Positions 4,099 to 61,719 are shown, counted from the first letter of the stretch. The stretch: DNA of 64,000 bases from an uncultured beta proteobacterium (GCA_963711235.1 CAVQDI010000002.1:206395-270394); one strand, 5' to 3'. Notes: generated by a model from the sequence alone, not told the origin. Numbers and translations: made by a program.

Positions 4099-4174
4099 GG
4101 GCGACGGCCGCTGCCAATCAGACCGTGGGCCGCGCAACCGGCCGACGCACGCGCCTTGGCCCTGACCGGTTGCC

Positions 4175-5203: not shown

Positions 5204-5418
5204 GGTCTCTCTCCTTGGCGCAAGCGCGCCACCCATTTTTGATTCCGACGCCGCGCTCTCACCTAATCGGACGACGCGGCGTAAGGCCGGCCACTATACC
5301 GTGGCTTTCGACCGTGCCTGGAAGTGTAGCAGTCCGAGGCGGAGGACAGGCATTTGGCGGCGTCGGCAAGAAAAAGCCCCGGGGTCTCCGGGGCTTCGGC
5401 GGATTGCCTGCCGAGGGG

Positions 5419-34561: not shown

Positions 34562-34680
34562 GAATGCCACAGTGAAACGCAATTACCGTACGCGGGTCAC
34601 ACGTCGGCTTTGCGCCGGCCCCAAGGGAGATGGCAACCCAACCGGGCTTGCGCGGCCAAGCCAAAAGAAGGAGTGCTGCG

Positions 34681-40188: not shown

Positions 40189-41955
40189 GTGGTTGATGTT
40201 CTTACAACTCGTGAACGCGGAGCACTGACTGGTATGAGGCGTAGCGTCACGACGACCTCGCCGCCCCGCCAACTCAAGGCGGTTACCGTTGCTGCGCTCC
40301 GTACATTGGCGACCCGCTTCGGCGGCGCGGACGATGCCCGTCGCTTCGCGCTGCTGCGCGCGGCCGCAGCTGCAGCGCTTGGCGATATGAAGGTACTGCT
40401 CGCCTATCACGATGTGCTGCTCTTCCTTCTGGCATATCCAGCCACGGCGGCGATGCGTTCACTCGCGGCTCTCGAGCTCACCCGGGTCGCTGCGGTGGCG
40501 CGATACATCGACGCGCACGGTCCCGCGCGGGCACGCGCTGGGCTGCGTGGCAGCGGCATCGCGTGGTCGGCAATCAGCATCGCCTACGGCTATCCGATCG
40601 CCCGTTGGCTGGTGTCCCGCTTTCCGAGATGTGTCGATATCGATTCGTTCGGTGAGCGCGGCGCGCTCCTCGCGGAATGGTTGCGCCCTGGTTTACCTCC
40701 GGCCGAATTCGAGCTCCTCGCGTCCGGCGAGGAATCGCCGGAGGCGCTGCTCGACGCCGGCACGACAGGATGGCGCGGCAGTCGGCTTTCCTGGCTGGTC
40801 GCGCAATTCGAGCGCCTGCCATGTGATCCCGCGTTGCGCGAGTCGCTCTACGACAGCCTCGAACTGTTCGTCTTGCTGAACCCGCGCGACGCGCCGATCT
40901 CACGCACGTTCGTGCGCGGATTGCCTGCCCAAGCGTTCTATCATCGCGGCCCGCTCTTGCGCAGCGTCGATGCCGATCGGCTGATCGCGGCTGCCCTGCC
41001 TCGGGCACGCCGCCTTGGGCGTGGCGCCTGCCAGCATCTGGTCGATGCCGGACGTGGCGTTCTGGCGGTACTCGGTCGTGAGACCGATCCGATCGCCCAT
41101 GCTGACGTTGCGCGGACGCGCCACTACCGCCTTGGGCGCGGTGTCGACATAGCGCTGTATTCGGCTATCCCTGCGCAACGCAGCGCACTCGATTCGCATA
41201 TCGGCTACGTGTTGTTCAAGAACAGTGTCCCGATCGGCTACGGCGGCGGTTGGCCGTTCCTCGGCACCTGCAAGATCGGCATCAACATCTTTGCGCCGTT
41301 TCGAAACGGCGAGTCCGCGTTTCTGATGGCCTCCGTCCTGCGCGTGTACGCCCAGCTGTTCGCGGTGGAGCGGTTTGTCGTGGAACCCTATCAATTCGGC
41401 GCCGGCAACCGTGAGGGCCTTGAATCAGGCGCCTTCTGGTTCTACTTTCGTTTGGGCTTCCGGCCCGTCAAACCCGCGCTGCGCGTGGTCGCGCTGGAGG
41501 AATTCGAGCGAATGAAGCGAAATCCGGGGTACCGCACGCCGTTGTCTGTCCTGCGGCGCTTCGCCCGCTCCGATCTCGAGCGGCCCGTAGTCTGTGGCGC
41601 TCGCGACGCCTGCGATCCGGCTGCGCTGAGTCAGGCGGTGACGACGTGGATAGCGTCACGGTTCCATGGGCGGCGCGATCGCGCGGAAACGGCAGCGCTG
41701 CGTCGCGTGGCTGCGGCGCTGGGGTTAGCGGATGCCGGTGCCTGGAACGACGACGAGCGCAGGGCGTTGCGCGCCATGGCGCCGGTCCTTGCTCAGATCA
41801 AAGACCTTCGCGCGTGGGCTGCGCCGGACAAGCGCCGCCTGGTCGCGCTGATCCGCGCTAAGGGCGGCAACGAGTACCGCCATTTCGCGTTGATGGCGGA
41901 TTTCGCGCGTCTGCGCAACGGATTGAACGTAGTCGCCGAAAACTCAGCGCCGTAA
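40189..41955 (+). CDS. Large hypothetical protein with a GNAT-like core in its second half
   Basis: Long uninterrupted ORF with coding-like composition. GYVLFKNSVPIGYGGGWPF...FVVEPYQFGAGNREGLESGAFWFYFRLGFRP resembles an acetyltransferase-fold segment. Start uncertain (GTG at 40189 or ATG at 40234). Confidence 0.55.
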   Translation: MVDVLTTRERGALTGMRRSVTTTSPPRQLKAVTVAALRTLATRFGGADDARRFALLRAAAAAALGDMKVLLAYHDVLLFLLAYPATAAMRSLAALELTRVAAVARYIDAHGPARARAGLRGSGIAWSAISIAYGYPIARWLVSRFPRCVDIDSFGERGALLAEWLRPGLPPAEFELLASGEESPEALLDAGTTGWRGSRLSWLVAQFERLPCDPALRESLYDSLELFVLLNPRDAPISRTFVRGLPAQAFYHRGPLLRSVDADRLIAAALPRARRLGRGACQHLVDAGRGVLAVLGRETDPIAHADVARTRHYRLGRGVDIALYSAIPAQRSALDSHIGYVLFKNSVPIGYGGGWPFLGTCKIGINIFAPFRNGESAFLMASVLRVYAQLFAVERFVVEPYQFGAGNREGLESGAFWFYFRLGFRPVKPALRVVALEEFERMKRNPGYRTPLSVLRRFARSDLERPVVCGARDACDPAALSQAVTTWIASRFHGRRDRAETAALRRVAAALGLADAGAWNDDERRALRAMAPVLAQIKDLRAWAAPDKRRLVALIRAKGGNEYRHFALMADFARLRNGLNVVAENSAP

Positions 41956-42609: not shown

Positions 42610-44004
42610 ATGGTTTACTCCGCAGCGAGCACGGGCGTCTCATTTGACCCGGATCTAATCCGCAAGTACGACCGCCTTGGCCCACGCTACACCTCCTATC
42701 CAACGGCAGATCGTTTTACCGAAGCGTTTACCGCCGACGATCTGGTTGACGCGCTCTTCAACCGCCAAACCGCCGGAGCGCCGTTGTCGCTGTACGTGCA
42801 CCTGCCGTTTTGCGATACGGTTTGTTACTACTGCGCCTGCAACAAGGTCCTCACCAAGGACCATAGTCGCTCGGCGAAGTACATCCGCTACCTTGGGAAG
42901 GAGGTCGCCATCCTGTCGGCGCTGGTCAGTCCCGAATCGCCAGTCAAGCAGCTGCACTGGGGCGGAGGCACGCCGACGTTTCTGTCAGCGGACGAGATGA
43001 GGCTATTGATGCGCGTCCTGCACGAAAACTTTAGCTTCGACGAGGACGCCGAGCTCGCAATCGAAATCGACCCGCGCAAGGCAAGTCACGCGACCGTTGG
43101 GTTGCTGGCCGAACTGGGCTTTAACCGGATGAGTGTAGGTGTCCAGGATTTCGACTCTGACGTGCAAAGAGCGGTGAACCGCCTCCAAAGCGAGGCCGAA
43201 ACGCTTATCGTCATGGACGCGGCGCGGGCGAACGGCTTCCGCTCAATCAACGTTGATCTAATCTATGGTCTGCCGCGTCAAACAGTACCCGGCTTCTGCA
43301 GAACGCTCGACCAAGTGATCGGGGCGGCACCAGAACGGATCGCACTGTACAGCTACGCCCACGTCCCGCACTTATTCAAGCCGCAGCGGCAGATCAGCGA
43401 AGCCGAATTGCCAACCTCGGACGCCAAGCTTGCGCTCCTCGAGCTGGCGATTGACAAGCTGACGGCTGCGGGTTACGTCTACATTGGCATGGACCATTTC
43501 GCTAAGCCCCATGATGAGCTCGCTGTGGCGCAGCGGCAGGGGAAATTGCACCGCAATTTCCAAGGCTACTCGACCAATGCCGATTGCGATTTACTATCGA
43601 TCGGTATTTCGGCGATCGGCAAGACCGGCACAACTTATAGCCAGAACCTGCGCACTCTGGATGAGTATTACGGCCGGCTCGACGCCGACGCGTTACCGTG
43701 TTTTCGCGGCTGGCGGCTTTCCGCCGACGATCTGTTGCGGCGCGATGTTATCCATGCGCTTATGTCCCACTTCACTGTATCATTCGAGCGAGTCGAAGCC
43801 GTGCATGCGATCGCGTTCAACGAGTATTTCACAGCAGAGCTGAAGGAACTTGAACACCTGGTCGATGACGGATTGATCGAAATCGCGTCAGATACGATCA
43901 TCGTGACGCGGCGCGGCCGGCTTCTGGTCCGTTCCATAGCGATGATATTCGACCGCCATCTGCGCCTGCAGCGCGAGCAGGCACGCTATTCGCGCTTGAT
44001 CTGA
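42610..44004 (+). CDS. hemN: Oxygen-independent coproporphyrinogen III oxidase (radical SAM)
   Basis: RYTSYPTADRF, SLYVHLPFCDTVCYYCACN (CxxxCxxC), GGGTPTFL, and a HemN C-terminal domain. 464 aa. Confidence 0.9.
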   Translation: MVYSAASTGVSFDPDLIRKYDRLGPRYTSYPTADRFTEAFTADDLVDALFNRQTAGAPLSLYVHLPFCDTVCYYCACNKVLTKDHSRSAKYIRYLGKEVAILSALVSPESPVKQLHWGGGTPTFLSADEMRLLMRVLHENFSFDEDAELAIEIDPRKASHATVGLLAELGFNRMSVGVQDFDSDVQRAVNRLQSEAETLIVMDAARANGFRSINVDLIYGLPRQTVPGFCRTLDQVIGAAPERIALYSYAHVPHLFKPQRQISEAELPTSDAKLALLELAIDKLTAAGYVYIGMDHFAKPHDELAVAQRQGKLHRNFQGYSTNADCDLLSIGISAIGKTGTTYSQNLRTLDEYYGRLDADALPCFRGWRLSADDLLRRDVIHALMSHFTVSFERVEAVHAIAFNEYFTAELKELEHLVDDGLIEIASDTIIVTRRGRLLVRSIAMIFDRHLRLQREQARYSRLI

Positions 44005-44049
44005 TCGCTCTCGGCGTTTGGTAGGGGTCTCGGCTCCCTTGGCTTAACA

Positions 44050-44063
44050 TTGATCTGAGTCAG
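44050..44063. promoter_or_regulatory. FNR-type box TTGATCTGAGTCAG
   Basis: 8/10 match, 45-58 nt upstream of the hemerythrin gene start. Confidence 0.4.
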
Positions 44064-44107
44064 GTCCGGAGCCCTGGCGTCGCGGATGCATGTGGGAAGG
44101 GACAGCT

Positions 44108-44695
44108 ATGCAGTCACTTCGCATCATCAAAGACGAACATCGCTCGCTGGCAGCGGTCTTGCACGGCATGCTTTACTTGGTTCACGAGATCCGCGACCGG
44201 GGCGCCAAGCCAAATTTTGCCTTGCTTGGGGCGATGATCTATTACATCGACACGGTTCCGGAACGATTCCACCACCCCAAGGAGGATCAGTACCTGTTTT
44301 GGCTATTGCGCATTCGCCACCCGGATGCGGCGCCGCTGCTTGACCGGCTGAAGTCGGAGCACCAGGCGGGCGCCGAAAGGATACGCACGCTGGAGCAGGC
44401 CTTGATGCGGTACCAGCACGGCGGCGCGGCCGAATTCTTCAACTTCATGGCGGCGGTGGAAGCCTATGCAGCCTTCCACTGGGATCACATGCAAACCGAG
44501 GAAAATGACGTCCTGCCGCTGGCAGAGAAGCATCTCACCGTCGGCGATTGGCAAGCGATCGATGCGGCATTTCTCGGTCACACCGATCCGATGGTCGGCG
44601 TCGACGCAGGAGTCAAGTACGACACGCTGTTCCGTCGCATCGTCAACCTGGCGCCGCCGCCGATCGGCGTGGGACCCGCGAGCGAGCGCGAGTGA
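44108..44695 (+). CDS. Hemerythrin-like domain protein
   Basis: ATG at 44108. IKDEHRSLAAVLHG, FHHPKEDQYLF, and HMQTEENDVLPLAEK. Confidence 0.75.
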   Translation: MQSLRIIKDEHRSLAAVLHGMLYLVHEIRDRGAKPNFALLGAMIYYIDTVPERFHHPKEDQYLFWLLRIRHPDAAPLLDRLKSEHQAGAERIRTLEQALMRYQHGGAAEFFNFMAAVEAYAAFHWDHMQTEENDVLPLAEKHLTVGDWQAIDAAFLGHTDPMVGVDAGVKYDTLFRRIVNLAPPPIGVGPASERE

Positions 44696-47114: not shown

Positions 47115-47444
47115 TCAGTAACCCGACGACCCCTGAAATGCCACCGGCCTGTCCGGCACCGGAAAACGGTAGTAGAGATCGTTCAGATAGCGGGTGACAG
47201 CGAGGATGTCCTCGTCGCTCCAGGCGAGGCCCGTGTTCATCTGCCATCGAAATACTTGCTTCCTGAGACTTGCCCAGTCTGTCGCCAGCCTCTTGTCGCG
47301 CCAATGCACCTGTGCGCTATGGCAACCGATGCAATGGGTGGAATAGAGGAGCTCGCCGCGGGAGCTGTCCGGCGCTGGCTGGGCCGCAACCGCAATTGCG
47401 CCAGCGGTGCAGGCGGCCATTAGCCCCAATGTCAGTCGTCGCAT
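47115..47444 (-). CDS. Small monohaem c-type cytochrome, secreted
   Basis: Signal peptide MRRLTLGLMAACTAGAIAVAA. A single CIGCH. Last gene of the minus-strand string. Confidence 0.75.
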   Translation of the reverse strand: MRRLTLGLMAACTAGAIAVAAQPAPDSSRGELLYSTHCIGCHSAQVHWRDKRLATDWASLRKQVFRWQMNTGLAWSDEDILAVTRYLNDLYYRFPVPDRPVAFQGSSGY

Positions 47445-47543: not shown

Positions 47544-48506
47544 TCAACCGTCGTTCTTAACCATCGGCCATGTCTCATTGGCGTGCTTCAGCAGCGCAGG
47601 ATTGCTGCGGCAGCGGGTGATGAATTCGCGCACCTCCGGCGCATGCCAGGCGTCGCGATAGGCCCGCCACGCATCCTCGAGCGAATCGCGGCGCAGGTCG
47701 GCGGCGGCGAAAGGGAGCGCATTGAGCAGCTTGACCTTGCCGTTGGGCACGACCAGGAGCATCGCCTGCGGTCGCTCGAGCCGCGTTTCCATCTCCGCAA
47801 GAATGTCCCAAGGATAGATCAAAAGGGCCATTCCGGGGCCGATCGACGCGGCGCGTTCTCTCAGCGCGGTAACCGCGGCGCGCCACTCCTCGCTGCTGCA
47901 TGCAATGCGCTGCCAGGCGCCAGCGGCGCGGCCGATGCGCATGAGCGGGCCGGTCACGAATGCGCTGCAGCCGAGCGTTGCCGCCAGATCGAACGCGGCG
48001 ACAATCTCGTGCAGATTAAAGCGGGTGGGAACGAACACCAATTGCGGTGCAAGACCGCGCGCGACCAATCGCTCGATGGCGGCGACCGCCGCGGCGAAGC
48101 TCGATCCCGGTCGCACGCGTTCATGCGTCGCCGCCGTCGCTCCATCGACCGAAATCTGGATGCATTCGACGCCGAGCGCCGAGAGCCGATCGGCCGCGGA
48201 ATCGTCGATGTGGCTGCCGTCGGTCTCGATCTTGAGCGCGATGCCGGCCGCGCCGAGCAGCTCCAGCAGATCCCAGCAATGCGGTACACCCAGCGGCTCG
48301 CCACCACCGAAGGCAACGTAGGCGACGCCGAACGCCGCGATGCGACGCGCAAGGTCGATCGCTTCGTCACGGGGAAGCTCATCGTGCCATGCCTTATCGG
48401 GACCGGACTCCTCGCAGCAGGTGATGCAGCGCGCGGCGCAGCGGTTGGTCAGCTGCCAGGCAAGAAAAAGGGGCGCCCGGTAGTCTTCGACCGAGCGCCC
48501 CGGCAT
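47544..48506 (-). CDS. Radical SAM enzyme, PqqE-like core, paralogue 3
   Basis: LFLAWQLTNRCAARCITCC (CxxxCxxC), GGGEP, and IETDG. The C-terminal part is homologous to a SPASM/twitch region (VVPNGKVKLLNALPFAAADLRRDSLEDAW) but has no auxiliary-cluster cysteines. Confidence 0.85.
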   Translation of the reverse strand: MPGRSVEDYRAPLFLAWQLTNRCAARCITCCEESGPDKAWHDELPRDEAIDLARRIAAFGVAYVAFGGGEPLGVPHCWDLLELLGAAGIALKIETDGSHIDDSAADRLSALGVECIQISVDGATAATHERVRPGSSFAAAVAAIERLVARGLAPQLVFVPTRFNLHEIVAAFDLAATLGCSAFVTGPLMRIGRAAGAWQRIACSSEEWRAAVTALRERAASIGPGMALLIYPWDILAEMETRLERPQAMLLVVPNGKVKLLNALPFAAADLRRDSLEDAWRAYRDAWHAPEVREFITRCRSNPALLKHANETWPMVKNDG

Positions 48507-48525: not shown

Positions 48526-48681
48526 TCAGGTGAAGCGGATGTACGGCTGAGCCATCACCTGCTCGGAAATGTCCTCGAGCTTGGGCGTTTCCCACGCGAG
48601 CTTTTGCGCCGGCTGCACCGTATCGGTCTTGCGTTCATCGCCGGTCTTAGCGGCTTCGATCGTCAGGTTCATCTCGCTCAT
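48526..48681 (-). CDS. 51-aa PqqA-like candidate precursor peptide (not in the ORF track)
   Basis: ATG at 48681 with GGAGGG 4-9 nt upstream; stop TGA at 48526-48528. Lies 10 nt after the stop of the upstream rSAM gene and 19 nt before the start of the next. Translation: MSEMNLTIEAAKTGDERKTDTVQPAQKLAWETPKLEDISEQVMAQPYIRFT. Confidence 0.6.
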   Translation of the reverse strand: MSEMNLTIEAAKTGDERKTDTVQPAQKLAWETPKLEDISEQVMAQPYIRFT

Positions 48682-48691
48682 TTTCCCTCCG

Positions 48692-49654
48692 TCAGGTCAC
48701 ACCCGGGACCACGGACAACAACTGCCAACTGTTGGCTTGCGCGTGACGCGAGGGGTCGGCGACCGCGCGCTCTGCTGCCATTAGCACTGTATCACTTCGC
48801 CAGGCGTTGCGGTAGGCCTCCCAGGCCTCCATTAGTGTATGGCGGCGCAAGTCAGCACAGATCTGCGGCAGCGCGGCGGCGACCTTGACCCAGCCGTTGG
48901 GTAGCACGAGCAGGGTTGCCGGCGGCGTTTGGAGACTGCCGCGCAGGCCTTCCTCGAGATCGAACGGAAGATGGCATAACTCCAATTGACCCTCCAGGAG
49001 CCGGCCCATGCGTCGCAACAGGCGGCGAAACGCCCGGTACTGCGCATCGGTGGGCTCGAGCTTGTCCCACAGCCGTGCGGCAGTGCCGATGCGCATAAGC
49101 CGCCCGGTATTGACGCGGAAGGCACCAAGCGCCCGTGCCCGCTCGATGACCGGCCCAGCCTCGTGAATGTTGAGCCGGGTCGGCGCAAAGGTGATCTCGA
49201 GCGGCAGCCCGGCCGCGCGAGCGGCACGGCAGGCCGCATGGGCTTTGGCGAGCGACGCGCCTGGCCGCTGGCCCTCGTAGACCTGCTGCGTGTCGCCGTC
49301 GAGGCTGATCTGCATCGAGCGGATGGGCAGGCGGGCGAGCCGAGCGGCGAGTTCGGCATCGAAGCGCTGCCCGTTGGTCTCGATCTTGAGCTGAACGCCC
49401 GCCCGCCCGAGTGCCTCGGCCAAGGCAACGAAGTGAGGCACCACCAAAGGTTCACCGCCACACAGCATCACATAGGGCACTTCGTTGCGGGCAATCTCAT
49501 CGGCCAGCCGCAGCGCCTCGCCGACGTCGAGTTCATCCCGCAGCCGCTTGCCTGGCGCCGACTCGGTACAGCAATGCAGGCAGCACAGGTCGCAGTCCCG
49601 CGTGATTTGCCACGAGACGAACAGCGGCGCGCATAGCTGATCGATTCGGTTCAT
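48692..49654 (-). CDS. Radical SAM enzyme, PqqE-like core, paralogue 2
   Basis: LFVSWQITRDCDLCCLHCC, CGGEP, and IETNG. C-terminal LVLPNGWVKVAAALPQICADLRRHTLMEAW. The start ATG overlaps the stop of the prenyltransferase gene (ATGA). Confidence 0.85.
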   Translation of the reverse strand: MNRIDQLCAPLFVSWQITRDCDLCCLHCCTESAPGKRLRDELDVGEALRLADEIARNEVPYVMLCGGEPLVVPHFVALAEALGRAGVQLKIETNGQRFDAELAARLARLPIRSMQISLDGDTQQVYEGQRPGASLAKAHAACRAARAAGLPLEITFAPTRLNIHEAGPVIERARALGAFRVNTGRLMRIGTAARLWDKLEPTDAQYRAFRRLLRRMGRLLEGQLELCHLPFDLEEGLRGSLQTPPATLLVLPNGWVKVAAALPQICADLRRHTLMEAWEAYRNAWRSDTVLMAAERAVADPSRHAQANSWQLLSVVPGVT

Positions 49655-50601
49655 AAGCGCAACGGGTGCAACGCATGCACCAGGACGCCGGCCGTAAAAA
49701 GCCCGACGCAGACAAGATAGCAGCCGACGATGCTGCGCATCGCGGGAACGAAGGCACGCGGCGTTTCGTAGCTGTGCAGCGCAGAGCGGCCGCTGGCCAC
49801 GAGCAGCGGTAGTGCCAGCAAGCCGGCTAGGCAGCTAACGGGAAAGATGCCGCTTGCTACACCGGCCAGCACGACCAGCAACCCGGCTGCCGCAAGGCCG
49901 ACATACAGCCAAACCGCGCGCCGGCGGCCGAGCCGTACGACAAGATTGCGCTTGCCGACCAATCGATCCTGGTGGTAATCCGGAATCGCGTTGACGACCG
50001 CGAGTGCCATGATCAAGCATCCCGGCACCAACGACGCGAGGAATGCACCCCAAGACAGGGCCTGGGTATGCAGGTAGAGACTGCCCAGGACCAGCCAGGG
50101 CCCGTACGACAGGGCGATGACCAGCTCACCCAGACCGCGATAGGCCCAACGTATCGGAGGCGCCACATAGAAGATCGCCGCCATGCCACCTAGCAGCGCG
50201 AAGGCAAGGATCGGCCAACCGCCGCGAACGGCCAGGTAAACGCCAATGGCCAGAGCGCCCGCAAAGGCTACTATCCCGAGCAAGAGTACCCCGCCAGACA
50301 TCGGCGGCAGGTCTGCAGGATTGAACACGCGGTCGGTCCCCATGCGTGAATCGAAATACTCGTTGAACGCCTCGACGCCGATGACCGCAAGGACCACGCC
50401 GCCGAATCCGCTCCAGAAGACAGCTGCGTCGAACGCACCCTCGGTGCCGTAGGCCCACGCCGCTCCGAGCAGGTAGGGCAAGACGCCGGCATAGAGGAAA
50501 AAACGATAGCGCACCATGCTGCAGACGGTGAGCAGCCGGCGCAGCGCCGACCGGTCGACGGCGGCCCGGTCGGCGGACACAGGGGTCAGAGATAGACCCA
50601 T
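49651..50601 (-). CDS. UbiA/MenA-family integral-membrane aromatic prenyltransferase
   Basis: About 8-9 TM helices. First Asp-rich motif NEYFDSRMGTD and second motif DYHQDRLVGKRNLVVRLG (MenA-like N-x3-D-x3-G-x-D / D-x3-D-x2-GK). Start is either the ATG at 50601 (16-nt overlap with the upstream gene) or the ATG at 50517. Confidence 0.8.
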   Translation of the reverse strand: MGLSLTPVSADRAAVDRSALRRLLTVCSMVRYRFFLYAGVLPYLLGAAWAYGTEGAFDAAVFWSGFGGVVLAVIGVEAFNEYFDSRMGTDRVFNPADLPPMSGGVLLLGIVAFAGALAIGVYLAVRGGWPILAFALLGGMAAIFYVAPPIRWAYRGLGELVIALSYGPWLVLGSLYLHTQALSWGAFLASLVPGCLIMALAVVNAIPDYHQDRLVGKRNLVVRLGRRRAVWLYVGLAAAGLLVVLAGVASGIFPVSCLAGLLALPLLVASGRSALHSYETPRAFVPAMRSIVGCYLVCVGLFTAGVLVHALHPLRL

Positions 50602-51587
50602 TGGTGCAGCATCCTGGTCTGTCCCGGATCGGCGGCCAGATCGTTGACGAATTGCGCCACGCGCGGATCGTGCCACGCGCGCCGGAAGTTCGCCCAGATT
50701 TCCGGCAACGACTGGTGGCGAAAATCTCCGCACACGAACGGCAGGGCGTTGATGAGCTTGACCAGTCCGTTGGGGAGCACGATCAGCAGCGCAGCCGGGT
50801 GCTGGAGGCGGTAGCGCAGCTCCTCGAGCAGGCCGGCCTCGTGAAAATAGACGCGCATCCGGCCGCGGTACTCCTCGGTCTTTTCGCGCAGGATGTCGAA
50901 GAAAGCATCGTATCGCTCGTCCGACAACGCAAGGTGCCGCCATGCTTTCACGGCATTGCCGGTGAACATCGTACGGCCGGTATAGAAGCTGTACGCGCCC
51001 AGCCCGTAGGCCAGATCGACGACTGCGCCGATTTCATGGGCGTTAAATCGAGCCGGCGAAAAGTTGATTTCGACGGGGACGCCTGCATCGCGCAGGTTGC
51101 GAAGCCCCTCGACCGTCCGGTCGAAATTTCCGCGTACGCGCATGCGGTTAAAAGTCTGGCCCGACGCACCGTCGAGACTCACCTGCACCGCTTTGACGCC
51201 GAGCGCTTTCATGCGCTCACAGTTTTCGGCGGTCAGATAGTGGCCGTTCGTCTCGACCTTGAGCTGCGCACCGCGCGTGCAGACGTACTCCACCATTTTG
51301 AAGAACAGGGGGTGAAGCATCGGTTCTCCGCCAGAAAACGACAGGTAGGGGACTTCGTGGTCCATCAGCTGATCGAGGACGGCGAACATCTGCGCCTCGT
51401 CGAGTTCGTCGCGGAACGCCTTGCCGGGACCGCTCTCCTCGATGCAATGCAGGCAAGCGAGGTTGCACTCATTGGTGATCTGCCAGGCGACGTAGAGCGG
51501 CGCGGCGAGGTCCTCCGAGCAGGCGTAGGTCGAGGTCGTCGCCGGGATTGCGAACTCGGGTCCGGTATCCGTTGCTAATATTGTCAC
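50586..51587 (-). CDS. Radical SAM enzyme, PqqE-like core, paralogue 1
   Basis: GTG at 51587 with GAGGG upstream. LYVAWQITNECNLACLHC, SGGEP, and VETNG. C-terminal LIVLPNGLVKLINALPFVCGDFRHQSLPEIW. Confidence 0.85.
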   Translation of the reverse strand: MTILATDTGPEFAIPATTSTYACSEDLAAPLYVAWQITNECNLACLHCIEESGPGKAFRDELDEAQMFAVLDQLMDHEVPYLSFSGGEPMLHPLFFKMVEYVCTRGAQLKVETNGHYLTAENCERMKALGVKAVQVSLDGASGQTFNRMRVRGNFDRTVEGLRNLRDAGVPVEINFSPARFNAHEIGAVVDLAYGLGAYSFYTGRTMFTGNAVKAWRHLALSDERYDAFFDILREKTEEYRGRMRVYFHEAGLLEELRYRLQHPAALLIVLPNGLVKLINALPFVCGDFRHQSLPEIWANFRRAWHDPRVAQFVNDLAADPGQTRMLHQWVYL

Positions 51588-51940: not shown

Positions 51941-53236
51941 CTAGGGCGACGGCCCCATCATACCCATTTTCTGTGGCAGCCAGGTCGACAGCGTCGGCCA
52001 GTAGGTGACGATGACCAGGAACACGAGCATGGTGACGAGCCACGGGATGACCGCTCTCGTCAACCGGGTGATGCCAACGCGCGAAATCCCCGAAGCCACG
52101 TACAGGTTCAGGCCGACCGGCGGATGGCAAAGCCCGACCTCCATGTTGACATCGATCAGGATGCCGAGATGCACCGGATTGATCCCGAGCGTCATCGCCG
52201 CGGGGTAAAGAATCGGCGCCATGATGAGGATGACGGAAGACGGGTCCATGAAATTGCCGGCGATGAGCAACAGCAGGTTGGCCAGCAACAGGAACCCCAC
52301 CCAGCCCAGATCCTTGGCAATAATCCAGTCCGCCAGGGCATGCGGAATGTTCTCGTTGGTCAGTATGAAGGAGAACAGCGCCGCATTAGTGATGATATAG
52401 AGCAGCATCGCGCTCATGTTCGCTGAAGTCAGCAGCACCTTGCGCATGTCCCGAAGCGGCATGGCCTTATAGATGAAGACCGACACGAAGAAAGAGTAGA
52501 CTGCGGCCATCGCGGCCGCTTCGGTGGCCGTGAACAGCCCCGAGTAGATGCCGCCGATGATAATGACGACCAACATCAGGCCCCAGACACTCTCGCGAAA
52601 TAATTTCCAGCGAGTAACCCAGCTTTCCCTTGGCATCCGCGGGTAACCGCGCTTCTTCGCGATGTACCAGGTGACAAAACAAAGCATCGTGGTCAGCATG
52701 ATCCCCGGCAGGAGTCCTGCGACGAATAGCGCGCCGATCGACGTATTGGTGGCGATTGCGTAGATGACCTTGGGGATCGACGGCAGCATGAGAATGCCGA
52801 GCGAACCTGCTACCGTGATCACCGCTGCGCCGAATTCCATCGGGAAGCCGCGCTTGACCATCTCCGGCAGGACGATGGATCCGATGGCCACGACCGTGGC
52901 GACACTCGAACCGCAAACCAGCGCAAACATGGCGCAGGCCACGATGCCTGCCAGCGCGAGTCCGCCGTGCCAATGGCCGACCATGGAGGCGGCGAAATTG
53001 ATCATCCGCCGCGCCACGCCACCGTGGGTAAGGAAAGTGCCCGCCAGGATGAAGAACGGGATCGCCATGATCTCGAACCGCTCGATGCCGGTAAACAGCT
53101 TCAACGCGACCGACTCGATCGGCACCTGGGTCATGGTGAACACGAAAGTCAACACCGTGAGCCCCAGCGCGATGGAGATGGGCATGCCGGTGAGCATGAG
53201 CGCGATCAACAGGCCAAAAATGATGGCGGACGTCAT
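51941..53236 (-). CDS. dctM: TRAP C4-dicarboxylate transporter large permease
   Basis: 431 aa, about 12 TM helices. MPISIALGLT..., IPFFILAGTFLTHGGVARRMI, and PPVGLNLYVASGI. Confidence 0.9.
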   Translation of the reverse strand: MTSAIIFGLLIALMLTGMPISIALGLTVLTFVFTMTQVPIESVALKLFTGIERFEIMAIPFFILAGTFLTHGGVARRMINFAASMVGHWHGGLALAGIVACAMFALVCGSSVATVVAIGSIVLPEMVKRGFPMEFGAAVITVAGSLGILMLPSIPKVIYAIATNTSIGALFVAGLLPGIMLTTMLCFVTWYIAKKRGYPRMPRESWVTRWKLFRESVWGLMLVVIIIGGIYSGLFTATEAAAMAAVYSFFVSVFIYKAMPLRDMRKVLLTSANMSAMLLYIITNAALFSFILTNENIPHALADWIIAKDLGWVGFLLLANLLLLIAGNFMDPSSVILIMAPILYPAAMTLGINPVHLGILIDVNMEVGLCHPPVGLNLYVASGISRVGITRLTRAVIPWLVTMLVFLVIVTYWPTLSTWLPQKMGMMGPSP

Positions 53237-53239
53237 CGC

Positions 53240-53860
53240 TCAACGCTTCTCGGAAGGCGTTGCGGGGTGAAGGTTGTCTTCCACCGCCATGCCGATCGGC
53301 AGGATGTCCTTGTCGGAGATTCTCTCGACGCCCGCCACGTCGGTGGGATCGTGATGGGGCAACTCACCGGTGCGGCGGAAGTTCCACGCGACTTGAAGAA
53401 AGCGAAAACACATCAATCCCGACCCACAGGGAATGGCAAGGTAGACCAGCCACATGGGCAACTCCATGTCGGGCGAGGTCTGGTTGGTGTGGGCCAGCTG
53501 CCAGACGAAGCTGGCACCGAACGCGGCCACCACGCCTGTAAACAGAGCTCCTGCGAACAAACCGAAGAAGATGCACTTTCGGCGGGCGCTCTCGGGCAGG
53601 TGATTGATCACCACGTCCACACCGACGTGGACGCCAGTGCGCACGCCGTAAGCGGCGCCGAACTTGGCCATCCACACGAACATGTAGATGCATGCTTCCT
53701 GCGCCCACGAGAGATTGAGCGCGAGCAGCCAATCCTGCACCACGGGAATCGGCAAACCCGCCGCGTAGCGGTGGATGACAGCCACGAAGATGATCAACGT
53801 CGCACCACCCATGAGCAGGGCGATTAGCCACTCCTCCAGATGGTCAAGGAGCTTCAGCAT
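53240..53860 (-). CDS. dctQ: TRAP transporter small permease
   Basis: ATG at 53860. Four TM helices. LEEWLIALLMGGATLIIFVAVIHRY. Stop lies 3 nt before the dctM start. Confidence 0.85.
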   Translation of the reverse strand: MLKLLDHLEEWLIALLMGGATLIIFVAVIHRYAAGLPIPVVQDWLLALNLSWAQEACIYMFVWMAKFGAAYGVRTGVHVGVDVVINHLPESARRKCIFFGLFAGALFTGVVAAFGASFVWQLAHTNQTSPDMELPMWLVYLAIPCGSGLMCFRFLQVAWNFRRTGELPHHDPTDVAGVERISDKDILPIGMAVEDNLHPATPSEKR

Positions 53861-53899
53861 GCCGCCTGTCCCGGGTTTGTCGACTGGTCTTGTCCCACG

Positions 53900-53927
53900 C
53901 AAAAAAAGCCGCTGCGGGCCGCAGCGG
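53900..53927 (-). terminator. Intra-operon rho-independent terminator/attenuator after dctP
   Basis: On the minus strand: GCCGCTGC-GGCCC-GCAGCGGC (8-bp GC stem) followed by TTTTTTT. Confidence 0.5.
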
Positions 53928-53983
53928 CGTTGGTTGCGTCCAGCCGCACCCGTGCCTCCCGCGCGTGGCTCGGTCAGGGCGCC

Positions 53984-54991
53984 TCAGGGCTTGAAGCCGG
54001 TTTCCTTGTAAACAGACTGGATCAGATCTTTGCCGATACGGATTTCCTGGTCACGATGTACCGGCACCAGCGCTTTTTTCCACGTGGCTTTCTGTTCGGG
54101 CGTGAGGGTGATAATCTCGGTCTTACCGGAAGCGTTTACCGCCGCGAGCGCCTTGTCGTTCTCTTCCTTGGCGATGTCGTTAGCGAATTTGGTCGCATCT
54201 TTCATTGCGCCTTCGAGCGTTGCGCGGGTATCGGCAGGCAATCCTTCCCAGAACTTCTTGTTGACGATCACCGCGTATTCGAGCACACCGTGATCGGTCA
54301 TCGTTAGATGCTTCTGCACTTCGTTCATCTTCTGCGTGTAAAAGTTCGATGGCGGATTCTCCGTTCCATCGACGACACCGGTTTGCAGCGCCTGATAGAC
54401 CTCGGAGAATGCCATCACCTGCGGAATTCCCCCCAGAGCGCGAATTTCGGAGTCGAGTACTTTCGACGATTGGATGCGCATCTTCAAACCCTTGACGTCG
54501 CCGGGAAGACGCAGCGGTTTGTTCGCACTGAAGTCCTTGAAGCCGTTGTCCCAATACGCAAGACCGACGATCCCCTTGGATTCAAGCTTCTGGAACAGGG
54601 CTTTACCTACCGGGCCTTCCGTGACCTTGTGTAGCTCCGCAACGTCATCGAAGAGGTAAGGCAGATCAAATACCTCAAATTCGCGTGCACCCAACGGCCC
54701 GAATTTCGCCACCGAGGGTGCCAGCATCTGTACCGCGCCAAGCTGTAGCGCATCGACTTCCTCGCCATCCTTGTAGAGCGTGCTGTTGGGGTACACCTCG
54801 ACCTTGACCCGGCCCTTGGTGCGCTCTTCCGCGAGTTTCTTGAAATACTCGGCACCCTTGCCTTTCGGCGTATCGACGGCAACGACGTGGCTGAACTTGA
54901 TGATGATCGGCTGCTGTGCGGGTGCCCCGAACGCAATCGCTAAACTAGCCAGCGCGACAATTAGTGATGCAAACTTCGTTGCGACCTTCAT
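53984..54991 (-). CDS. dctP: TRAP C4-dicarboxylate-binding periplasmic protein
   Basis: ATG at 54991 with GGAGGAG upstream. Signal peptide. IIKFSHVVAVDTPKGKGAEYFKKLAEERTKGRVKVEVYPNSTLY...LQLGAVQMLAPSVAKF closely follows canonical DctP. Confidence 0.9.
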   Translation of the reverse strand: MKVATKFASLIVALASLAIAFGAPAQQPIIIKFSHVVAVDTPKGKGAEYFKKLAEERTKGRVKVEVYPNSTLYKDGEEVDALQLGAVQMLAPSVAKFGPLGAREFEVFDLPYLFDDVAELHKVTEGPVGKALFQKLESKGIVGLAYWDNGFKDFSANKPLRLPGDVKGLKMRIQSSKVLDSEIRALGGIPQVMAFSEVYQALQTGVVDGTENPPSNFYTQKMNEVQKHLTMTDHGVLEYAVIVNKKFWEGLPADTRATLEGAMKDATKFANDIAKEENDKALAAVNASGKTEIITLTPEQKATWKKALVPVHRDQEIRIGKDLIQSVYKETGFKP

Positions 54992-55022
54992 GTCTCCTCC
55001 ACATAGGGTGCAAAAAGACCTG

Positions 55023-55796
55023 CTATTTCCAGCCAATGCTCACCATCTTGCGACGCATGAAGGCGATCTGCGTTGCGAGCGGCAACTCCTTCGGGCAGAC
55101 ATCGTGGCAAGCGAGCAAGGACATGCAACCGAAAACGCCGCTGTCGTCGCCGACGAGTTCATAGAAATCTGCGTCGCTGCGCGTGTCGCGCGGATCGAGC
55201 CGGAAGCGGGCGATCTTGTTCAGCCCGACCGCGCCGACAAAATCGTCGCGCATGCGCGCGGTGCCGCAACCGGCGACACAACACCCGCATTCGATGCAAC
55301 GATCAAGCTCGTAGATCTTCTGCGCCAGTTCCGGCTCCATGCGTTCCTCGAGCCGGGAAAGGTCCACCTCTTTCTGCCGCGTGTGCACCCAGGCCTGCAG
55401 CCGCTCGCTCATCGCTCGCATCCACTTGCCGGTGTTCACCGAAAGGTCGGCGATCAATTCGAAGACCGGCAGGGGCGCCAGCGTGATCTCCGGCGCCAGG
55501 TTCTGCGTCAGCGTACGGCAGGCGAGCCCTGGGCGCCCATTGATCAGCATGCCGCAGCTGCCGCATATCCCGGCGCGACAGACGAAGTCAAATTGCAGGG
55601 ACGCGTCCTGCTTTTCGCGGATTTCGTTGAGCGCGATGAACAGCGTCATCCCCTCTGCCTCTTCGAGTTCGTAGGCCTGCATGCGCGGAACACTGCCTCG
55701 CTCCTGCGGGTTGTAGCGCAGGACGCTGATCCGCACCTTGCGGTGCGGTCGTTCAGGCGGCACCGGCGGGGATGGCATCGCGGTGGCTTCGGTCAT
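55023..55796 (-). CDS. frdB: Fumarate reductase / succinate dehydrogenase iron-sulfur subunit
   Basis: Cys clusters [32 protein letters not shown] and CHDVCP. The start overlaps the frdA stop (ATGA). Confidence 0.9.
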
Positions 55797-57811
55797 GTCG
55801 CGCCCGATCGTTGCTGGCCTGCGGGGGACGGTGCCAGCGGCTCGTCGATGCGCTCGTTGGGTCCGCGGAAGCGTTCGGGCATTAGCGCCGCGTACGGCAT
55901 CAGGGCCTCCTGTATGACCGTGCGGCTGGCGCTGGCAAGCCGGGTCCTGATCGCCTCCACCTCCGCGGCGCGACGCGCCGTGTCGGGATGATCGACGTAA
56001 TCCTTCGCGCCGTACCCGCGCCACCCCGGCGGCAGCTCCATCTGCATCACGTCGAGCGATTCGCGCGCAAGCGTCGGCAGCACGTCGTCGGCGTTCTTCC
56101 ACGTTGCCAGCGTGCGATTCAGCCATTCGGCGTCGTTGCGCCGCGGATAGTCGTGGCGGAAATGCGCGCCCCGGCTCTCGGTCCGGGTCAGCGCGCCGTA
56201 GGCCACGCACAGCGCCAGTCGCAACATCTTCTGCACCCGGTAGGCGGAGACGAGCTCGGGATTCGGGCCACTTGCGGTCGAGCGCAGACCGATCTTCTGA
56301 CTGCGCTGCAGCAGCGACTGCAGCTCCTCGACTGCGGCGGCGAGCTCCTCGCCAGCGCGGAAGATGCCGACCTTGGCCGTCATGATCTCCTGCATTCGTA
56401 CCCGCAGCGCGTTGGCTTCTTCCCCGCCCCGGTTACCGGCGAGCGCGTCGAGCTTGGCCTGCTCGTGTTCCAGGAACTCGCGGATCAGGCCCGTGGAGAA
56501 TTGCAGGTTGCCCTCGGGACGAGCACAGAAGTCGGCTATGAACTCACCCACGATCATGCCGCCGACGACGGTTTCCGCGACCGAGTTTCCTCCCAGGCGG
56601 TTAAAGCCGTGCAGGTCCCAGCAGGCGGCTTCGCCGGCTGCGTAGAGTCCCTTGAGCGTCGGGCTGCCACCGGTGTGGTCGGTCCGGATCCCACCCATCG
56701 TGTAATGCTGTGCCGGCCGCACCGGTATCCAATCCTTTATCGGGTCGATGCCAAGGAAATAGTGGCAGATCTCCTTCACTTCGCGCAGGTTGCTGTCGAT
56801 GTGTTTGGCCCCGAGCAGGGTAATGTCGAGCCAGAGATGCTCGCCGAAGCGCGACTTCACGCCCGCGCCTCGCCGGATGTGCTCTTCCATGCGCCGGGAT
56901 ACCACGTCGCGCGACGCGAGTTCCTTTTTCTCCGGCTCGTAGTCGGGCATGAAGCGCTTTCCCGCAGCGTCGCGCAGCAACCCACCGTCCCCACGGCAAC
57001 CTTCGGTGACCAGAATGCACGCAGGAAAGATCGCCGTCGGGTGAAACTGGATGGCCTCCATGTTGGCCACCGCCGCCACGCCTGTCTCCAGCGCCAGCGC
57101 CGTGCCGGTACCCTCGCAGATGACGGCGTTGGTCGTCGCACGATAAAGACGGCCCGCGCCGCCGCTCGCAATGGCGGTCGCCTTGGAGACGTAGGCGACC
57201 AGTTCCCCGGTCACGAGGTTACGGACCACTGCGCCGTAGCAGCGAGATCCGTCATGAATCAGCGCCAGGGCCTCCATGCGCTCGTGCACGGTGATCGCGT
57301 TGGCGATTGCCTGGTCGCTCATCGCGTACAGCATGGCGTGGCCCGTGCCGTCGGAAACGTAGCAGGCGCGCCATTTCTTGGTGCCACCGAAGTCGCGTTG
57401 CATCACCAGTCCGTGCGCTTCGTCGCGCTCGGTGATCGTGACCTTCTGGCCGTTGATGATCACCTGCCGGTCACCTTTCTGCACGCGGCTCCACGGCACG
57501 CCCCAGGCGGCAAGCTCGCGCACGGCCTTGGGCGCCGTGTCGACGAACATGCGCACGACGCGCTGATCGGCGCCCCAGTCGCTGCCGCGCACAGTGTCTT
57601 CGAAATGCACGTCCTCGTTGTCACCCATCGCTTTGACGACGTTGCCCAGGCTCGCTTGCATGCCGCCCTGCGCCGCTGCAGAGTGCGATCGCTTGGGCGG
57701 GACGAGCGATAGGATGATGACGTCCTGGCCACGGCGTTTGGCGCCGATGCCGATCCGCAGCCCCGCGAGGCCACCGCCGATCACCAGCACGTCGGTGTAG
57801 ATCACGTTCAT
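55793..57811 (-). CDS. frdA: Fumarate reductase / succinate dehydrogenase flavoprotein subunit
   Basis: [22 protein letters not shown] (covalent-FAD His region), QFHPT, RGEGG-like CRGDGG, and HYTMGG. 672 aa. Confidence 0.9.
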
Positions 57812-58614
57812 CGGGGGCCTCCCACCGCCCCCCCGGCGGCGGGCTGGGGTGACGGTGCCTGCCGCGCAGCCGGCACGTAATGCTCGCCATAGTGGTCACG
57901 GTGCTCGATGCCGATCTTGATATAGGCCGCCAGAGTCGCCACGCCCAGGACCAGGAAAAAGCCCGTCAGCGCCCATTTGGCGAGCTTGAGCCGACGCCGC
58001 AGCGCATTCGCATCGCCGCCTCCGAACCAACCCCATTTTACGGCCAGGCGGTACAGGCCAATCCCGCCGTGCACCTCGACGGTCAGCAGCAGCACAATGT
58101 ACAGCGGCCAGAAGTGTTCGCTCCAGACCCGATCGGCCGATTCGAACGGCCCGATGCGGTCGGGCCGGGTAAGCATGATGTAGAGGTGGACCGAGGCCAG
58201 AAAGAACAGGGCGAAGCCGGTGACGACCTGCCAAAACCAAAGCGTTGTGTCTTCGTGCCGCAGCATCCGCATGTGACCGCGAAAGGTGCTGAACTGACGG
58301 TAGTTAATCGGGAATTTGCGCACCGCCAGCAGGGCGTGCGCTACCACCAGCGCGATGACCAGCGCGACCACGGTCGAGACAATTCCCGGATAGGACCGAC
58401 CGAAGACGAAATAGCCTTCGAAGAATTTCGTAACCATCCACATAACGTCCTTGCCAAGCAGGATCGACGAGACGAAGGCCATATGCGCCCACATGAAAAG
58501 CGCCAGCAGGAGACCCGAGGCGCTCTGCGCCAGGTCAAGTCTCGCCGGCCAATGGCTGCGCCGGGCAGGGTCGGTCAGACCGACGCCGGCGATCAGCGGG
58601 CCGCTATGTTCCAT
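57808..58614 (-). CDS. frdC: Fumarate reductase dihaem cytochrome b membrane subunit (single-subunit, Wolinella/B-type anchor)
   Basis: ATG at 58614 with AAGGAAG upstream. Five TM helices with conserved His residues. Stop overlaps the frdA start (ATGA). Confidence 0.8.
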
Positions 58615-58870: not shown

Positions 58871-59449
58871 ATGTTCCAGATCCGGATTCACGGTCGTGGC
58901 GGTCAGGGCGTGGTATCGGGCGCCGAAATGCTATCCGTCGCGGCATTTCTCGAAGGGCATTATGCCCAGGCGTTTCCCAGCTTCGGGTCGGAGCGCATGG
59001 GGGCGCCCGTAATGGCCTTCTGCCGCATCGACGACAAGGAGATCCGCTTGCGCGAACCGGTGCTGGAACCCGAGGCGCTGATCGTGCAGGACCCGACATT
59101 GCTGCATCAGGTCGACCTGTTCAGCGGCCTCCAGGCGCGTGGCTACATCCTGATCAACTCGACGCGCAGCTTCGAAGAGCTCGGGCTCGGCGCGTTCGCG
59201 CGGGGCGTCGGGCGTTATCGCCTGTGCTCGCTCCCGGCCACCGAGCTGGCACTCAAGCACGTGGGCCGCTCGGTGCCGAACGCGGCGCTTCTCGGCGGTT
59301 TTGCCGCGGTCACCGGGCGGATCGCGCTGGCGTCGGTCATCGCCGCCATCCGCCAGAAGTTTCCTGCCGCGGTGGCGGAGAAGAACGCCGCCGCGGCCAC
59401 GGAAGCGTTCGAGTTTGCCGCTAAAGCGAAGGACACGATCGATGCTTAA
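58871..59449 (+). CDS. 2-oxoacid:ferredoxin oxidoreductase gamma subunit
   Basis: MFQIRIHGRGGQGVVSGAEMLSVAAF...FPSFGSERMGAPV. Confidence 0.85.
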   Translation: MFQIRIHGRGGQGVVSGAEMLSVAAFLEGHYAQAFPSFGSERMGAPVMAFCRIDDKEIRLREPVLEPEALIVQDPTLLHQVDLFSGLQARGYILINSTRSFEELGLGAFARGVGRYRLCSLPATELALKHVGRSVPNAALLGGFAAVTGRIALASVIAAIRQKFPAAVAEKNAAAATEAFEFAAKAKDTIDA

Positions 59450-60695: not shown

Positions 60696-60711
60696 ACCTG
60701 GAGGAAGTGCC

Positions 60712-61707: not shown

Positions 61708-61719
61708 CAGCATCGATCC

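Follow-up and report, generated by a model that had tools for sequence, protein, structure and literature searches.

Here, we describe a gene for a membrane prenyltransferase of the UbiA superfamily that lies in a stretch of 64,000 nucleotides from an uncultured beta proteobacterium (GCA_963711235.1 CAVQDI010000002.1:206395-270394; hereafter, the window) and belongs to a conserved set of genes (hereafter, the cassette) that also encodes a small precursor peptide, a PqqD-like protein and radical S-adenosylmethionine (radical SAM, rSAM) enzymes. We suggest, with a probability of roughly 0.6, that the UbiA gene provides the lipid-transfer step of an undescribed pathway resembling those for peptides that ribosomes make and that are modified after translation (RiPPs), and that the product, whose chemistry we infer, is a polyprenylated, membrane-anchored peptide or a peptide-derived cofactor. 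Each part of the cassette comes from a known family; the combination, a PqqD/radical SAM peptide pathway with a MenA-derived integral-membrane prenyltransferase among its obligate core members, is unreported.

In the window, the cassette is a compact, co-oriented set of genes on the minus strand at 47.5-51.9 kb in the order PqqD–rSAM1–UbiA–rSAM2–peptide–rSAM3 (Table 1). An initial annotation of this DNA had placed the UbiA gene inside a peptide-modification operon; the open reading frames (ORFs) on both sides of it do encode radical SAM proteins (PF04055), and the operon holds, besides, the PqqD-like gene, the precursor ORF and rSAM-3, which had not been listed. The UbiA start had been described as overlapping or abutting rSAM-1, and the window sequence shows an overlap of 16 nt, with the rSAM-1 stop codon TGA (50586-50588) inside the UbiA ORF. 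At the other end, the sequence ATGA at 49651-49654 is common to the UbiA stop and the rSAM-2 start, a 4-nt overlap read in the same way before. Mechanically, the UbiA ORF is open over 49651..50943 (-); the start supported by homologues is the ATG at 50601, giving 316 aa, and the gene call for the homologue on contig L001 is likewise 316 aa. The PqqD ORF is mechanically open to 51897 and homologues begin at the ATG at 51843, an 82-83 aa PqqD gene being called at the matching position in L001, L002 and L004. A GGAGGG Shine-Dalgarno sequence lies upstream of the 51-aa precursor ORF.

We scanned one genome per species (185,579 species), in which 285 genomes had a relative, and examined the best 80 of these 285 with 8-kb flanks. 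Of the 66 genome loci whose flanks were long enough, 64 contain all six genes, identically ordered; in one of the other two, the peptide gene is present as well, missed by BLAST and caught by a regular-expression search. PqqD is the first cassette gene in 64/66 loci, and the positions of rSAM-2 and rSAM-3 are conserved likewise; contigs with close homologues have the same six genes in differing surroundings. In the 16.9-kb locus L049, PqqD, rSAM-1 and UbiA are present and the downstream rSAM-2, peptide and rSAM-3 are missing, while in L067 the entire cassette is split into many short ORFs, possibly by frameshifts, assembly errors or decay. Divergent members, with 36-47% UbiA identity, have a reduced core of peptide–PqqD–rSAM–UbiA with one rSAM. 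This minimal core was found in metagenome contigs (L005; L092/L102, where an NqrF-like reductase follows; and L093, with 31% GC), in an Aigarchaeota-like contig (L094) and in a Syntrophomonadaceae metagenome-assembled genome (MAG; L095); Acidianus ambivalens (L088) has three lineage-specific rSAM paralogues. The cassette spans Proteobacteria, Bacillota and archaea (Acidianus and the Aigarchaeota-like metagenome contig). Its carriers are mostly soil and peat MAGs of Burkholderiales (Casimicrobiaceae, Usitatibacter, Caldimonas), Steroidobacteraceae and Acetobacteraceae (Acidocella, Rhodopila); cultured carriers are Rhodopila globiformis DSM 161, Acidianus ambivalens and A. brierleyi. A tblastn search of 72,556 plasmids gave no match.

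A PqqD-like gene is present in all cassettes examined, and all clade members with examined context have a small ORF and genes for a radical SAM enzyme and a PqqD-like chaperone beside them. Because the UbiA homologue recurs in the cassette while the neighbours of P0172, a MenA-like protein that falls just beyond the clade, include neither rSAM nor PqqD genes, we regard the UbiA homologue as a core component and not a passenger. The conserved six-gene order and the recurrence of the arrangement in divergent lineages agree with the initial view of the gene as a dedicated, translationally coupled operon member and not a chance neighbour.

The precursor peptide combines a variable, charged N-terminal half with a 22-residue C-terminus, WETPKLEDVSEQVMAQPYIRFT, that is nearly unchanged among 78 loci and follows the pattern W..P.L.DVS..VMAQP[Y/F]IRFT. 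In divergent cassettes, whose enzymes are 36-47% identical, the tails are WKKPKLEDVSEKIMAQPYIRFT, WEKPKLEDVTEKVIPRPYIRFT (Aigarchaeota-like), WKKPQLIDVTGKLMAQPFIRFT (Syntrophomonadaceae MAG) and WEKPEIVDVSQKVMAQPFIRFT (Acidianus), and they still finish QP[Y/F]IRFT or RPYIRFT. Among 82 distinct DNA versions, W1, P4, P17, I19, R20, F21, T22 and the position of the stop are invariant, whereas the tail codons vary freely (six codons for Arg, four for Pro and four for Thr). Because the residues are fixed while the codons vary, selection acts on the peptide, and we conclude that strong purifying selection at the protein level maintains the final 22 residues of the precursor. Position 18 of the tail is Tyr in most lineages and Phe in Acidianus and the Syntrophomonadaceae MAG. 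Each locus has a single precursor copy; the precursor ORF is present in the minimal cassettes also, where it comes first. Searched against Pfam and NCBIfam at E<=10, the precursor matched no family and not PqqA, and the 549 precursor clusters in the protein collection have no informative name, nearly all of the named ones being called 'hypothetical protein'. In the Acidianus ambivalens record (L088), the precursor ORF (6654-6752) is unannotated.

The precursor gene is followed by an RNA hairpin with a GC-rich 12-bp stem, an 8-nt loop and the T-run TTTTTCTT. It lies 25 nt past the precursor stop, overlaps codons 2-13 of rSAM-3, and is found in 58 of 83 loci, with matching position in L002-L087; it is absent from the minimal cassettes. 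In 73 aligned sequences, 82.6% of cells pair compared with at most 58.8% when partners are slid, and the covariation score is 0.125 compared with 0.073 in shuffles, 0/500 of which reached 0.125. One pair shows compensatory change, occurring as UG, UA, GC and AU. The hairpin may be an attenuator or a 3' stabiliser that raises the precursor mRNA relative to that of rSAM-3.

The prenyltransferase is, as first annotated, a polytopic protein of the UbiA superfamily: Pfam UbiA (PF01040) matches residues 40-284 with 88.8 bits against a gathering score of 34.2, and the AlphaFold (AF2) model, with a predicted local distance difference test score (pLDDT) of 85.8, has nine long helices. Both Asp-rich motifs named at the outset are present (...EAFNEYFDSRMGTDRVF... 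and ...IPDYHQDRLVGKRNLVVRLG..., with NEYFDSRMGTD at residues 80-90 and DYHQD at residues 208-212), and they align with those of E. coli MenA (NDYGDAVKGSD and DINSDRENGKNTLVVRLG), UbiA and CyoE. N80, D212, G216 and K217 are invariant across the cassette UbiA clade. In the AF2 model, the best Foldseek match in the PDB is UBIAD1 (TM-scores 0.70/0.78), followed by digeranylgeranylglyceryl phosphate (DGGGP) synthase and the archaeal UbiA homologues ApUbiA and AfUbiA, all at E<=1e-3; by sequence, the closest solved structure is also UBIAD1 (8djk, E 9e-18), followed by chlorophyll synthase. Based on the conserved Asp-rich motifs and the predicted UBIAD1-like fold, the enzyme is predicted to be catalytically competent.

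The initial impression that the protein is closest to the MenA pattern is correct in that its top NCBIfam models are all MenA, though each score is under its cut-off. The protein fails all ten MenA-type cut-offs (for example, 69.6 versus 102.15 bits for TIGR00751 and 107.5 versus 264 bits for NF004751), and the cassette UbiA proteins score 60-108 bits on the MenA models, in each case below the cut-off. With TIGR00751, two other cassette members reach 60-62 bits, whereas the nearest non-cassette relatives reach 104-123 bits, several of them passing the cut-off; the next-closest non-cassette proteins have an insertion after motif 1. In an exhaustive search of 1.84 billion cluster representatives, full-length relatives down to ~36% identity share the clade signature GVE.FNEYFD...DRVF, in which GVE.FNE stands beside motif 1 where MenA-type proteins have ..N.AN. 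The placement within the superfamily that had been called for was obtained from a simple neighbour-joining tree (Poisson distances, 29 sequences, 200 bootstraps, with MenA, UbiA and CyoE of E. coli from the K-12 record and CyoE as the outgroup), which agrees with the family-model scores. The cassette proteins form a monophyletic clade of their own (196/200 bootstraps), nested in a MenA-like group from which E. coli UbiA is excluded (195/200 bootstraps). The clade is apart from E. coli MenA, to which the window protein is 25% identical, from the relatives that exceed the MenA cut-off, and from CyoE (18% identity). As judged from these sequence comparisons, the UbiA protein is MenA-like yet not MenA. 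Haem O synthase orthology, which the initial annotation had named as one finding that would speak against its view, was not seen: no haem O synthase (CyoE/CtaB), UbiA or MqnP model matched the window protein at E<=0.01, and we rejected a haem O synthase identity on the ground that there is no CyoE/CtaB match and that the protein groups with MenA and not with CyoE.

The other such finding would have been that the gene is the only MenA/UbiA orthologue of the genome, placed here by chance. In a related explanation, the gene is simply the organism's own menaquinone MenA, lying by chance among radical SAM genes. The best family matches are MenA models, as this explanation would have it, and the source databases call the homologues '1,4-dihydroxy-2-naphthoate octaprenyltransferase', a label that stands on thousands of entries and is probably wrong for this clade. 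We give the explanation scarcely any credence, in view of the ten failed cut-offs, the separate clade and the low identity to E. coli MenA, the occurrence of the clade with peptide, PqqD and rSAM genes in all contexts examined in Bacteria and Archaea, and the overlap of the UbiA frame with rSAM genes on both sides. There is no men, mqn or ubi gene within the 64-kb window, and no second UbiA-family gene. In the L102 lineage, a second MenA-like UbiA gene (5476-6396) is present 3 kb downstream, beside molybdenum-cofactor genes.

All three radical SAM enzymes keep the CxxxCxxC motif and GGEP, and the CxxxCxxC column set is the only one conserved among the 14 cassette rSAMs compared. The cysteine set of a SPASM/twitch auxiliary cluster is absent in all three and there is no Pfam SPASM match; the C-terminal region still aligns with SPASM proteins and, from the alignment, looks like a cysteine-less remnant. 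One extra Cys is found in most of the rSAMs compared, including rSAM-1 and rSAM-2, and is missing in rSAM-3 and Acidianus. The best NCBIfam matches of rSAM-1 are AhbD (124 versus 500 bits), MftC and NirJ, all far under their cut-offs, and the best match of both rSAM-2 (119.9 versus 265 bits) and rSAM-3 (111 versus 265 bits) is MftC; across the three enzymes, MftC scores are 111-122 versus 265 bits and PqqE scores 56-79 versus 381 bits. In an AF2 model (pLDDT 80), rSAM-1 is closest to the RiPP maturases SkfB (6efn, E 4e-16) and PqqE (6c8v), followed by BlsE and SuiB, and it is the paralogue most like the lone rSAM of the minimal cassettes (41-45% identity to L092-L094 and 38% to L095). The PqqD-like protein is under the NCBIfam cut-offs for PqqD (37 versus 46), MftB (24.6 versus 33) and lasso-PqqD. 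The three Acidianus rSAMs (L088: 4343-5287 (-), 7028-7999 (+) and 8912-9853 (+)) share an identical C-terminal stretch of ~39 residues, PYVVADVRKHSMEEIWERYKKGWRHPKVKEWVEEVTKNP, yet are 57-74% identical overall, which suggests recent gene conversion; the proteobacterial and Acidianus rSAM triplications appear to be independent.

The AhbD match, together with the NirJ-family matches that follow it, could be taken to mean that the cassette modifies a tetrapyrrole, with AhbD/NirJ-like rSAMs, a UbiA homologue that, like haem O synthase, attaches an isoprenoid to a haem-like macrocycle and a small ORF that is incidental or a chaperone; HemN is encoded near the cassette at several loci (the window, L002/L003 and the genome loci L008, L067 and L081), a glutamyl-tRNA reductase gene lies near the cassette in L093, and a TP_methylase gene lies near the Acidianus cassette. 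However, the AhbD and NirJ scores are far under their cut-offs and on par with those of MftC and PqqE, the fold of rSAM-1 is nearest to SkfB and PqqE, and the UbiA protein groups with MenA and has no CyoE/CtaB match. This scheme also offers no role for a PqqD chaperone or for a strictly selected peptide, and we consider it very improbable.

We propose the following scheme for a pathway in which the peptide is the substrate. The PqqD-like protein would bind the W-x-x-P-x-L-x-D-V part of the precursor and present P-(Y/F)-I-R-F-T-COOH to the radical SAM enzyme(s), which would introduce cross-link(s) or another radical modification into the tail by hydrogen-atom abstraction. The Asp-rich Mg2+/diphosphate site of the prenyltransferase is expected to face the cytoplasm, with a lateral opening toward the bilayer, and the enzyme would move a (poly)prenyl group from a prenyl diphosphate onto the modified tail or a fragment cut from it. 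The product would remain anchored in the membrane of the cell that makes it. Invariant groups that might accept the prenyl chain are Arg20, Thr22 (as an ether, compare DGGGP synthase), the C-terminal carboxylate (as an ester, compare chlorophyll synthase), Phe21 and a group made by the rSAM enzymes. Because position 18 is Phe in Acidianus and the Syntrophomonadaceae MAG, a UbiA/MenA-style attack on the phenol of Tyr18, the one obvious phenol of the tail, is unlikely as a universal reaction. The initial annotation had argued from the enzyme type that the end product is a lipid-anchored aromatic and not a free peptide; lipid anchoring is the natural reading, and a lipidated modified peptide is at least as likely a product as a free aromatic.

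We also considered that the UbiA homologue prenylates a small non-peptide molecule, aromatic or other (for example, a quinone-type head group of separate origin), with the peptide and rSAM part later using this lipid or becoming coupled to it, or that the homologue only docks the maturation complex at the membrane, so that the peptide is never directly prenylated. The nearest relatives (the proteins of the MenA models and UBIAD1) all prenylate small aromatics, the alternation of Tyr and Phe at position 18 leaves no invariant activated phenol in the tail, quinone-dependent respiratory enzymes often adjoin the cassette, and a gene for a UbiE-type methyltransferase lies ~5 kb off in Acidianus. 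Nevertheless, the minimal set of peptide, PqqD, rSAM and UbiA includes no enzyme that would make another acceptor, the conserved active-site motifs make a purely structural role unlikely, and the clade signature GVE.FNE beside motif 1 points to a changed acceptor. Weighing these points, we judge this alternative unlikely.

The prenylated RiPPs so far known (ComX and the prenylated cyanobactins) are secreted signals or natural products, and the cassette might by analogy with the ComX pheromone make a secreted or surface lipopeptide that acts as a signal or antimicrobial. The hairpin after the precursor gene recalls the precursor over-expression of many bacteriocin operons and would fit this idea. 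By contrast, the core is near-invariant from Proteobacteria to Acidianus and the Aigarchaeota-like contig, there is one precursor copy per locus, and the flanks of the 80 loci hold no conserved exporter (including ABC exporters), leader protease or other peptidase, or immunity gene. Signals and toxins normally diversify (PMC3023750), and we regard a secreted product as distinctly improbable. The tail's invariance across domains and the lack of any conserved exporter, immunity gene or leader protease make a housekeeping factor a likelier product than an antibiotic or pheromone; it could be a membrane-bound cofactor, an electron carrier or a lipopeptide that functions in anaerobic or microaerobic energy metabolism.

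The cassette has several features in common with the mycofactocin system. Both have a short precursor (MftA in mycofactocin) whose N-terminus varies while its C-terminus stays invariant across phyla and into Archaea, a stand-alone PqqD-family chaperone (MftB) and an MftC-like radical SAM enzyme, MftC being the best or second-best NCBIfam match of all three cassette rSAMs; both lack a linked exporter or immunity gene and have a tailoring transferase that acts, or in the cassette would act, on a peptide-derived core; and in both, the precursor is conserved at the protein level while codons change (PMC3023750). From the same pattern of an invariant tail and no export genes, Haft predicted mycofactocin to be a cofactor (PMC3023750), and because the invariance, the missing export genes and the respiratory neighbours of the cassette match that pattern, the product here may be cofactor-like too. 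The two systems differ in that the MftC and MftB scores are below cut-off, the SPASM cysteines are absent in the cassette rSAMs, MftA ends CGVY whereas the cassette tail ends P(Y/F)IRFT, and MftD and MftE have no homologues in the cassette. Moreover, mycofactocin is tailored by the glycosyltransferase MftF and its genes neighbour those for nicotinoprotein dehydrogenases, whereas the cassette has a membrane UbiA-type prenyltransferase and neighbouring respiratory enzymes.

The cassette likewise shares the core logic of peptide, PqqD and radical SAM enzyme with the pathway for pyrroloquinoline quinone (PQQ), and PqqE is the second-best structural match of rSAM-1. The W-x-x-P...D...Y-I spacing in the 22-residue tail is, we take it, also that of PqqA, in which the aromatic residue presumably lies equally far from the C-terminus. 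However, PqqA is defined by an E-X3-Y motif (PMC12423496) that is absent from the tail, where the Glu site holds Met or Ile and the Tyr can be Phe. PqqB and PqqC are missing, with none in the flanks of the 80 loci, the PqqE and PqqD scores are below cut-off, and PQQ is soluble and periplasmic and is made without a lipid-transfer step. We therefore rejected membership of the cassette in either the PQQ or the mycofactocin system, as the defining features fail (E-X3-Y, CGVY and the model cut-offs).

With respect to the prenyltransferase, MenA and UBIAD1 are closest by sequence and structure and have the same fold, nine-helix topology and motifs (N(D/E)YxDxxxGxD and DxxxD...GK..L.VRLG), but the cassette enzyme fails the curated thresholds, forms a separate clade with its own residues beside motif 1, and is encoded in a peptide operon and not in a men or mqn context. 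The same predicted outcome, an isoprenoid on a ribosomal peptide, is reached by ComQ, which acts on the ComX pheromone, and by the F-family ABBA enzymes of cyanobactin pathways (PagF, LynF, TruF and their relatives). These enzymes are soluble, with an isoprenoid-synthase-like or ABBA fold, and use C5-C15 donors, whereas the cassette enzyme is an integral-membrane protein of the UbiA superfamily whose relatives take long polyprenyl donors. To our knowledge, no peptide prenyltransferases are known apart from ComQ and the cyanobactin ABBA enzymes, whose fold is unrelated to that of the UbiA superfamily. The statement in the initial annotation that the prenyltransferases known from RiPP pathways are soluble ABBA/cyanobactin-type or ComQ-type enzymes agrees with the open-access literature, in which we saw no RiPP pathway reported to include a UbiA-type enzyme and no link of such enzymes to radical SAM/PqqD systems; a match to UbiA and PqqD in Hyphomicrobium concerned ordinary ubiquinone and PQQ genes. 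We found no curated model and no open-access paper that describes the cassette, including the tail motif PYIRFT.

Table 1. Genes and RNA feature of the cassette in the window
Feature	Coordinates	Strand	Evidence or remarks
PqqD-like peptide chaperone (RiPP recognition element, RRE, protein), 83 aa	51592..51843	(-)	PF05402 52.2 bits versus 23.4 cut-off
Radical SAM enzyme 1 (rSAM-1), 333 aa	50586..51587	(-)	PF04055 80.8 bits
MenA-derived UbiA-superfamily membrane prenyltransferase, 316 aa, nine predicted transmembrane helices	49651..50601	(-)	PF01040 88.8 bits
Radical SAM enzyme 2 (rSAM-2), 320 aa	48692..49654	(-)	PF04055 75.6 bits
Precursor peptide, 51 aa, MSEMNLTIEAAKTGDERKTDTVQPAQKLAWETPKLEDISEQVMAQPYIRFT	48526..48681	(-)	Variable N-terminal part, near-invariant 22-residue C-terminal part
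Terminator-like RNA hairpin	48470..48501	(-)	Consensus scan and covariation
Radical SAM enzyme 3 (rSAM-3), 320 aa, last cassette gene	47544..48506	(-)	PF04055 74.8 bits

In the window, the surroundings of the cassette are typical of anaerobic or microaerobic metabolism. There, an frdCAB-like operon (55023-58614 (-)) encodes a flavoprotein of 672 aa, an Fe-S subunit and a single Sdh_cyt membrane subunit of 268 aa. A fumarate reductase/succinate dehydrogenase operon lies at most 8 kb from the cassette in ~21-23 of 80 loci, including that of the alphaproteobacterial Acidocella; it is on the same strand when it lies directly upstream and on the opposite strand when downstream, and occurs in Beta- and Alphaproteobacteria (loci with frdCAB: L004, L008, L012, L015, L019, L024-L026, L030, L038, L042, L043, L055, L066, L067, L070, L077, L081 and L084). 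Further recurrent neighbours encode NapC/NirT-like cytochromes, a membrane Fe-S protein, 2-oxoacid:ferredoxin oxidoreductase and HemN. These neighbours fit anaerobic membrane-bound electron transfer but could equally reflect co-regulation of oxygen-sensitive genes.

The window itself encodes a 2-oxoacid:ferredoxin oxidoreductase pair with a Fer4_20/Pyr_redox_2 protein (59301-63348 (+)), HemN followed by a hemerythrin-domain protein (42610-44695 (+)), and two transporters of the dicarboxylate type of tripartite ATP-independent periplasmic (TRAP) transporters (2218-5236 (-) and 51941-55036 (-)), one of them between frdB and the cassette. In L102 (2429-3520) and L092 (2331-3422), the UbiA gene overlaps a gene for a membrane-anchored, NqrF-like Fer2/FAD/NAD reductase, which scores 271 versus a cut-off of 295 bits. 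Just downstream of rSAM-3 in the window is an ORF of 109 aa (47115-47444 (-)) with a signal-like N-terminus and a CIGCH haem-binding motif; this cytochrome c-like ORF is probably not a cassette member, as L008 and L067, the two closest relatives, are alone in sharing it. Two other ORFs of the window, of 499 aa (34630-36129 (+)) and 588 aa (40189-41955 (+)), have a high GC content at third codon positions and no Pfam match at E<=1e-5, and the 588-aa ORF lies in the most GC-rich, AT-skewed 2-kb bin of the window.

A more specific form of our proposal is that the product is a redox cofactor, which would join PQQ and mycofactocin as the third derived from a ribosomal peptide and be the first with a polyprenyl group and a place in the membrane: a lipid-soluble electron carrier made from the invariant P(Y/F)IRFT tail that would serve anaerobic respiratory enzymes such as the type-B-like fumarate reductase. 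The enzyme would then be the first of the UbiA superfamily to act on a peptide. We put this forward tentatively and regard it as doubtful. We also entertained, and dropped, a role in the biosynthesis of caldariellaquinone in Sulfolobales; caldariellaquinone is tyrosine-derived, while the Acidianus precursor has Phe and not Tyr, and within Sulfolobales the cassette was seen only in Acidianus.

Several points weigh against a peptide-prenylating pathway tied to membrane energy metabolism. The link to fumarate reductase holds for only about a quarter of the loci, many of them related Burkholderiales MAGs, and the proximity of frd genes may reflect shared anaerobic regulation and not function. The canonical UbiA/MenA reaction on an activated phenol is not to be assumed, as Tyr18 is Phe in two lineages and the tail has no other obvious electron-rich aromatic, and with no conserved peptidase, a small cofactor could be released only by a protease encoded elsewhere. 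In addition, the co-occurrence counts were gathered from the UbiA side, the literature negative rests on open-access text, and the acceptor atom, the prenyl chain length and the radical SAM reaction are conjectural in our scheme.

The end of the precursor is alike in soil Burkholderiales, Acetobacteraceae, a Syntrophomonadaceae MAG and the archaeon Acidianus, and the cultured carriers make the cassette directly testable. Should the peptide prove to be prenylated by the enzyme, peptides would join the substrates of the UbiA superfamily, and RiPP chemistry would acquire membrane anchoring by long chains. On the redox-cofactor proposal, the organisms served would be ones that may be without a low-potential quinone, Burkholderiales of the ubiquinone type among them; the product may thus be a membrane cofactor that bears on how some bacteria with ubiquinone only carry out fumarate reduction and other steps at low potential.

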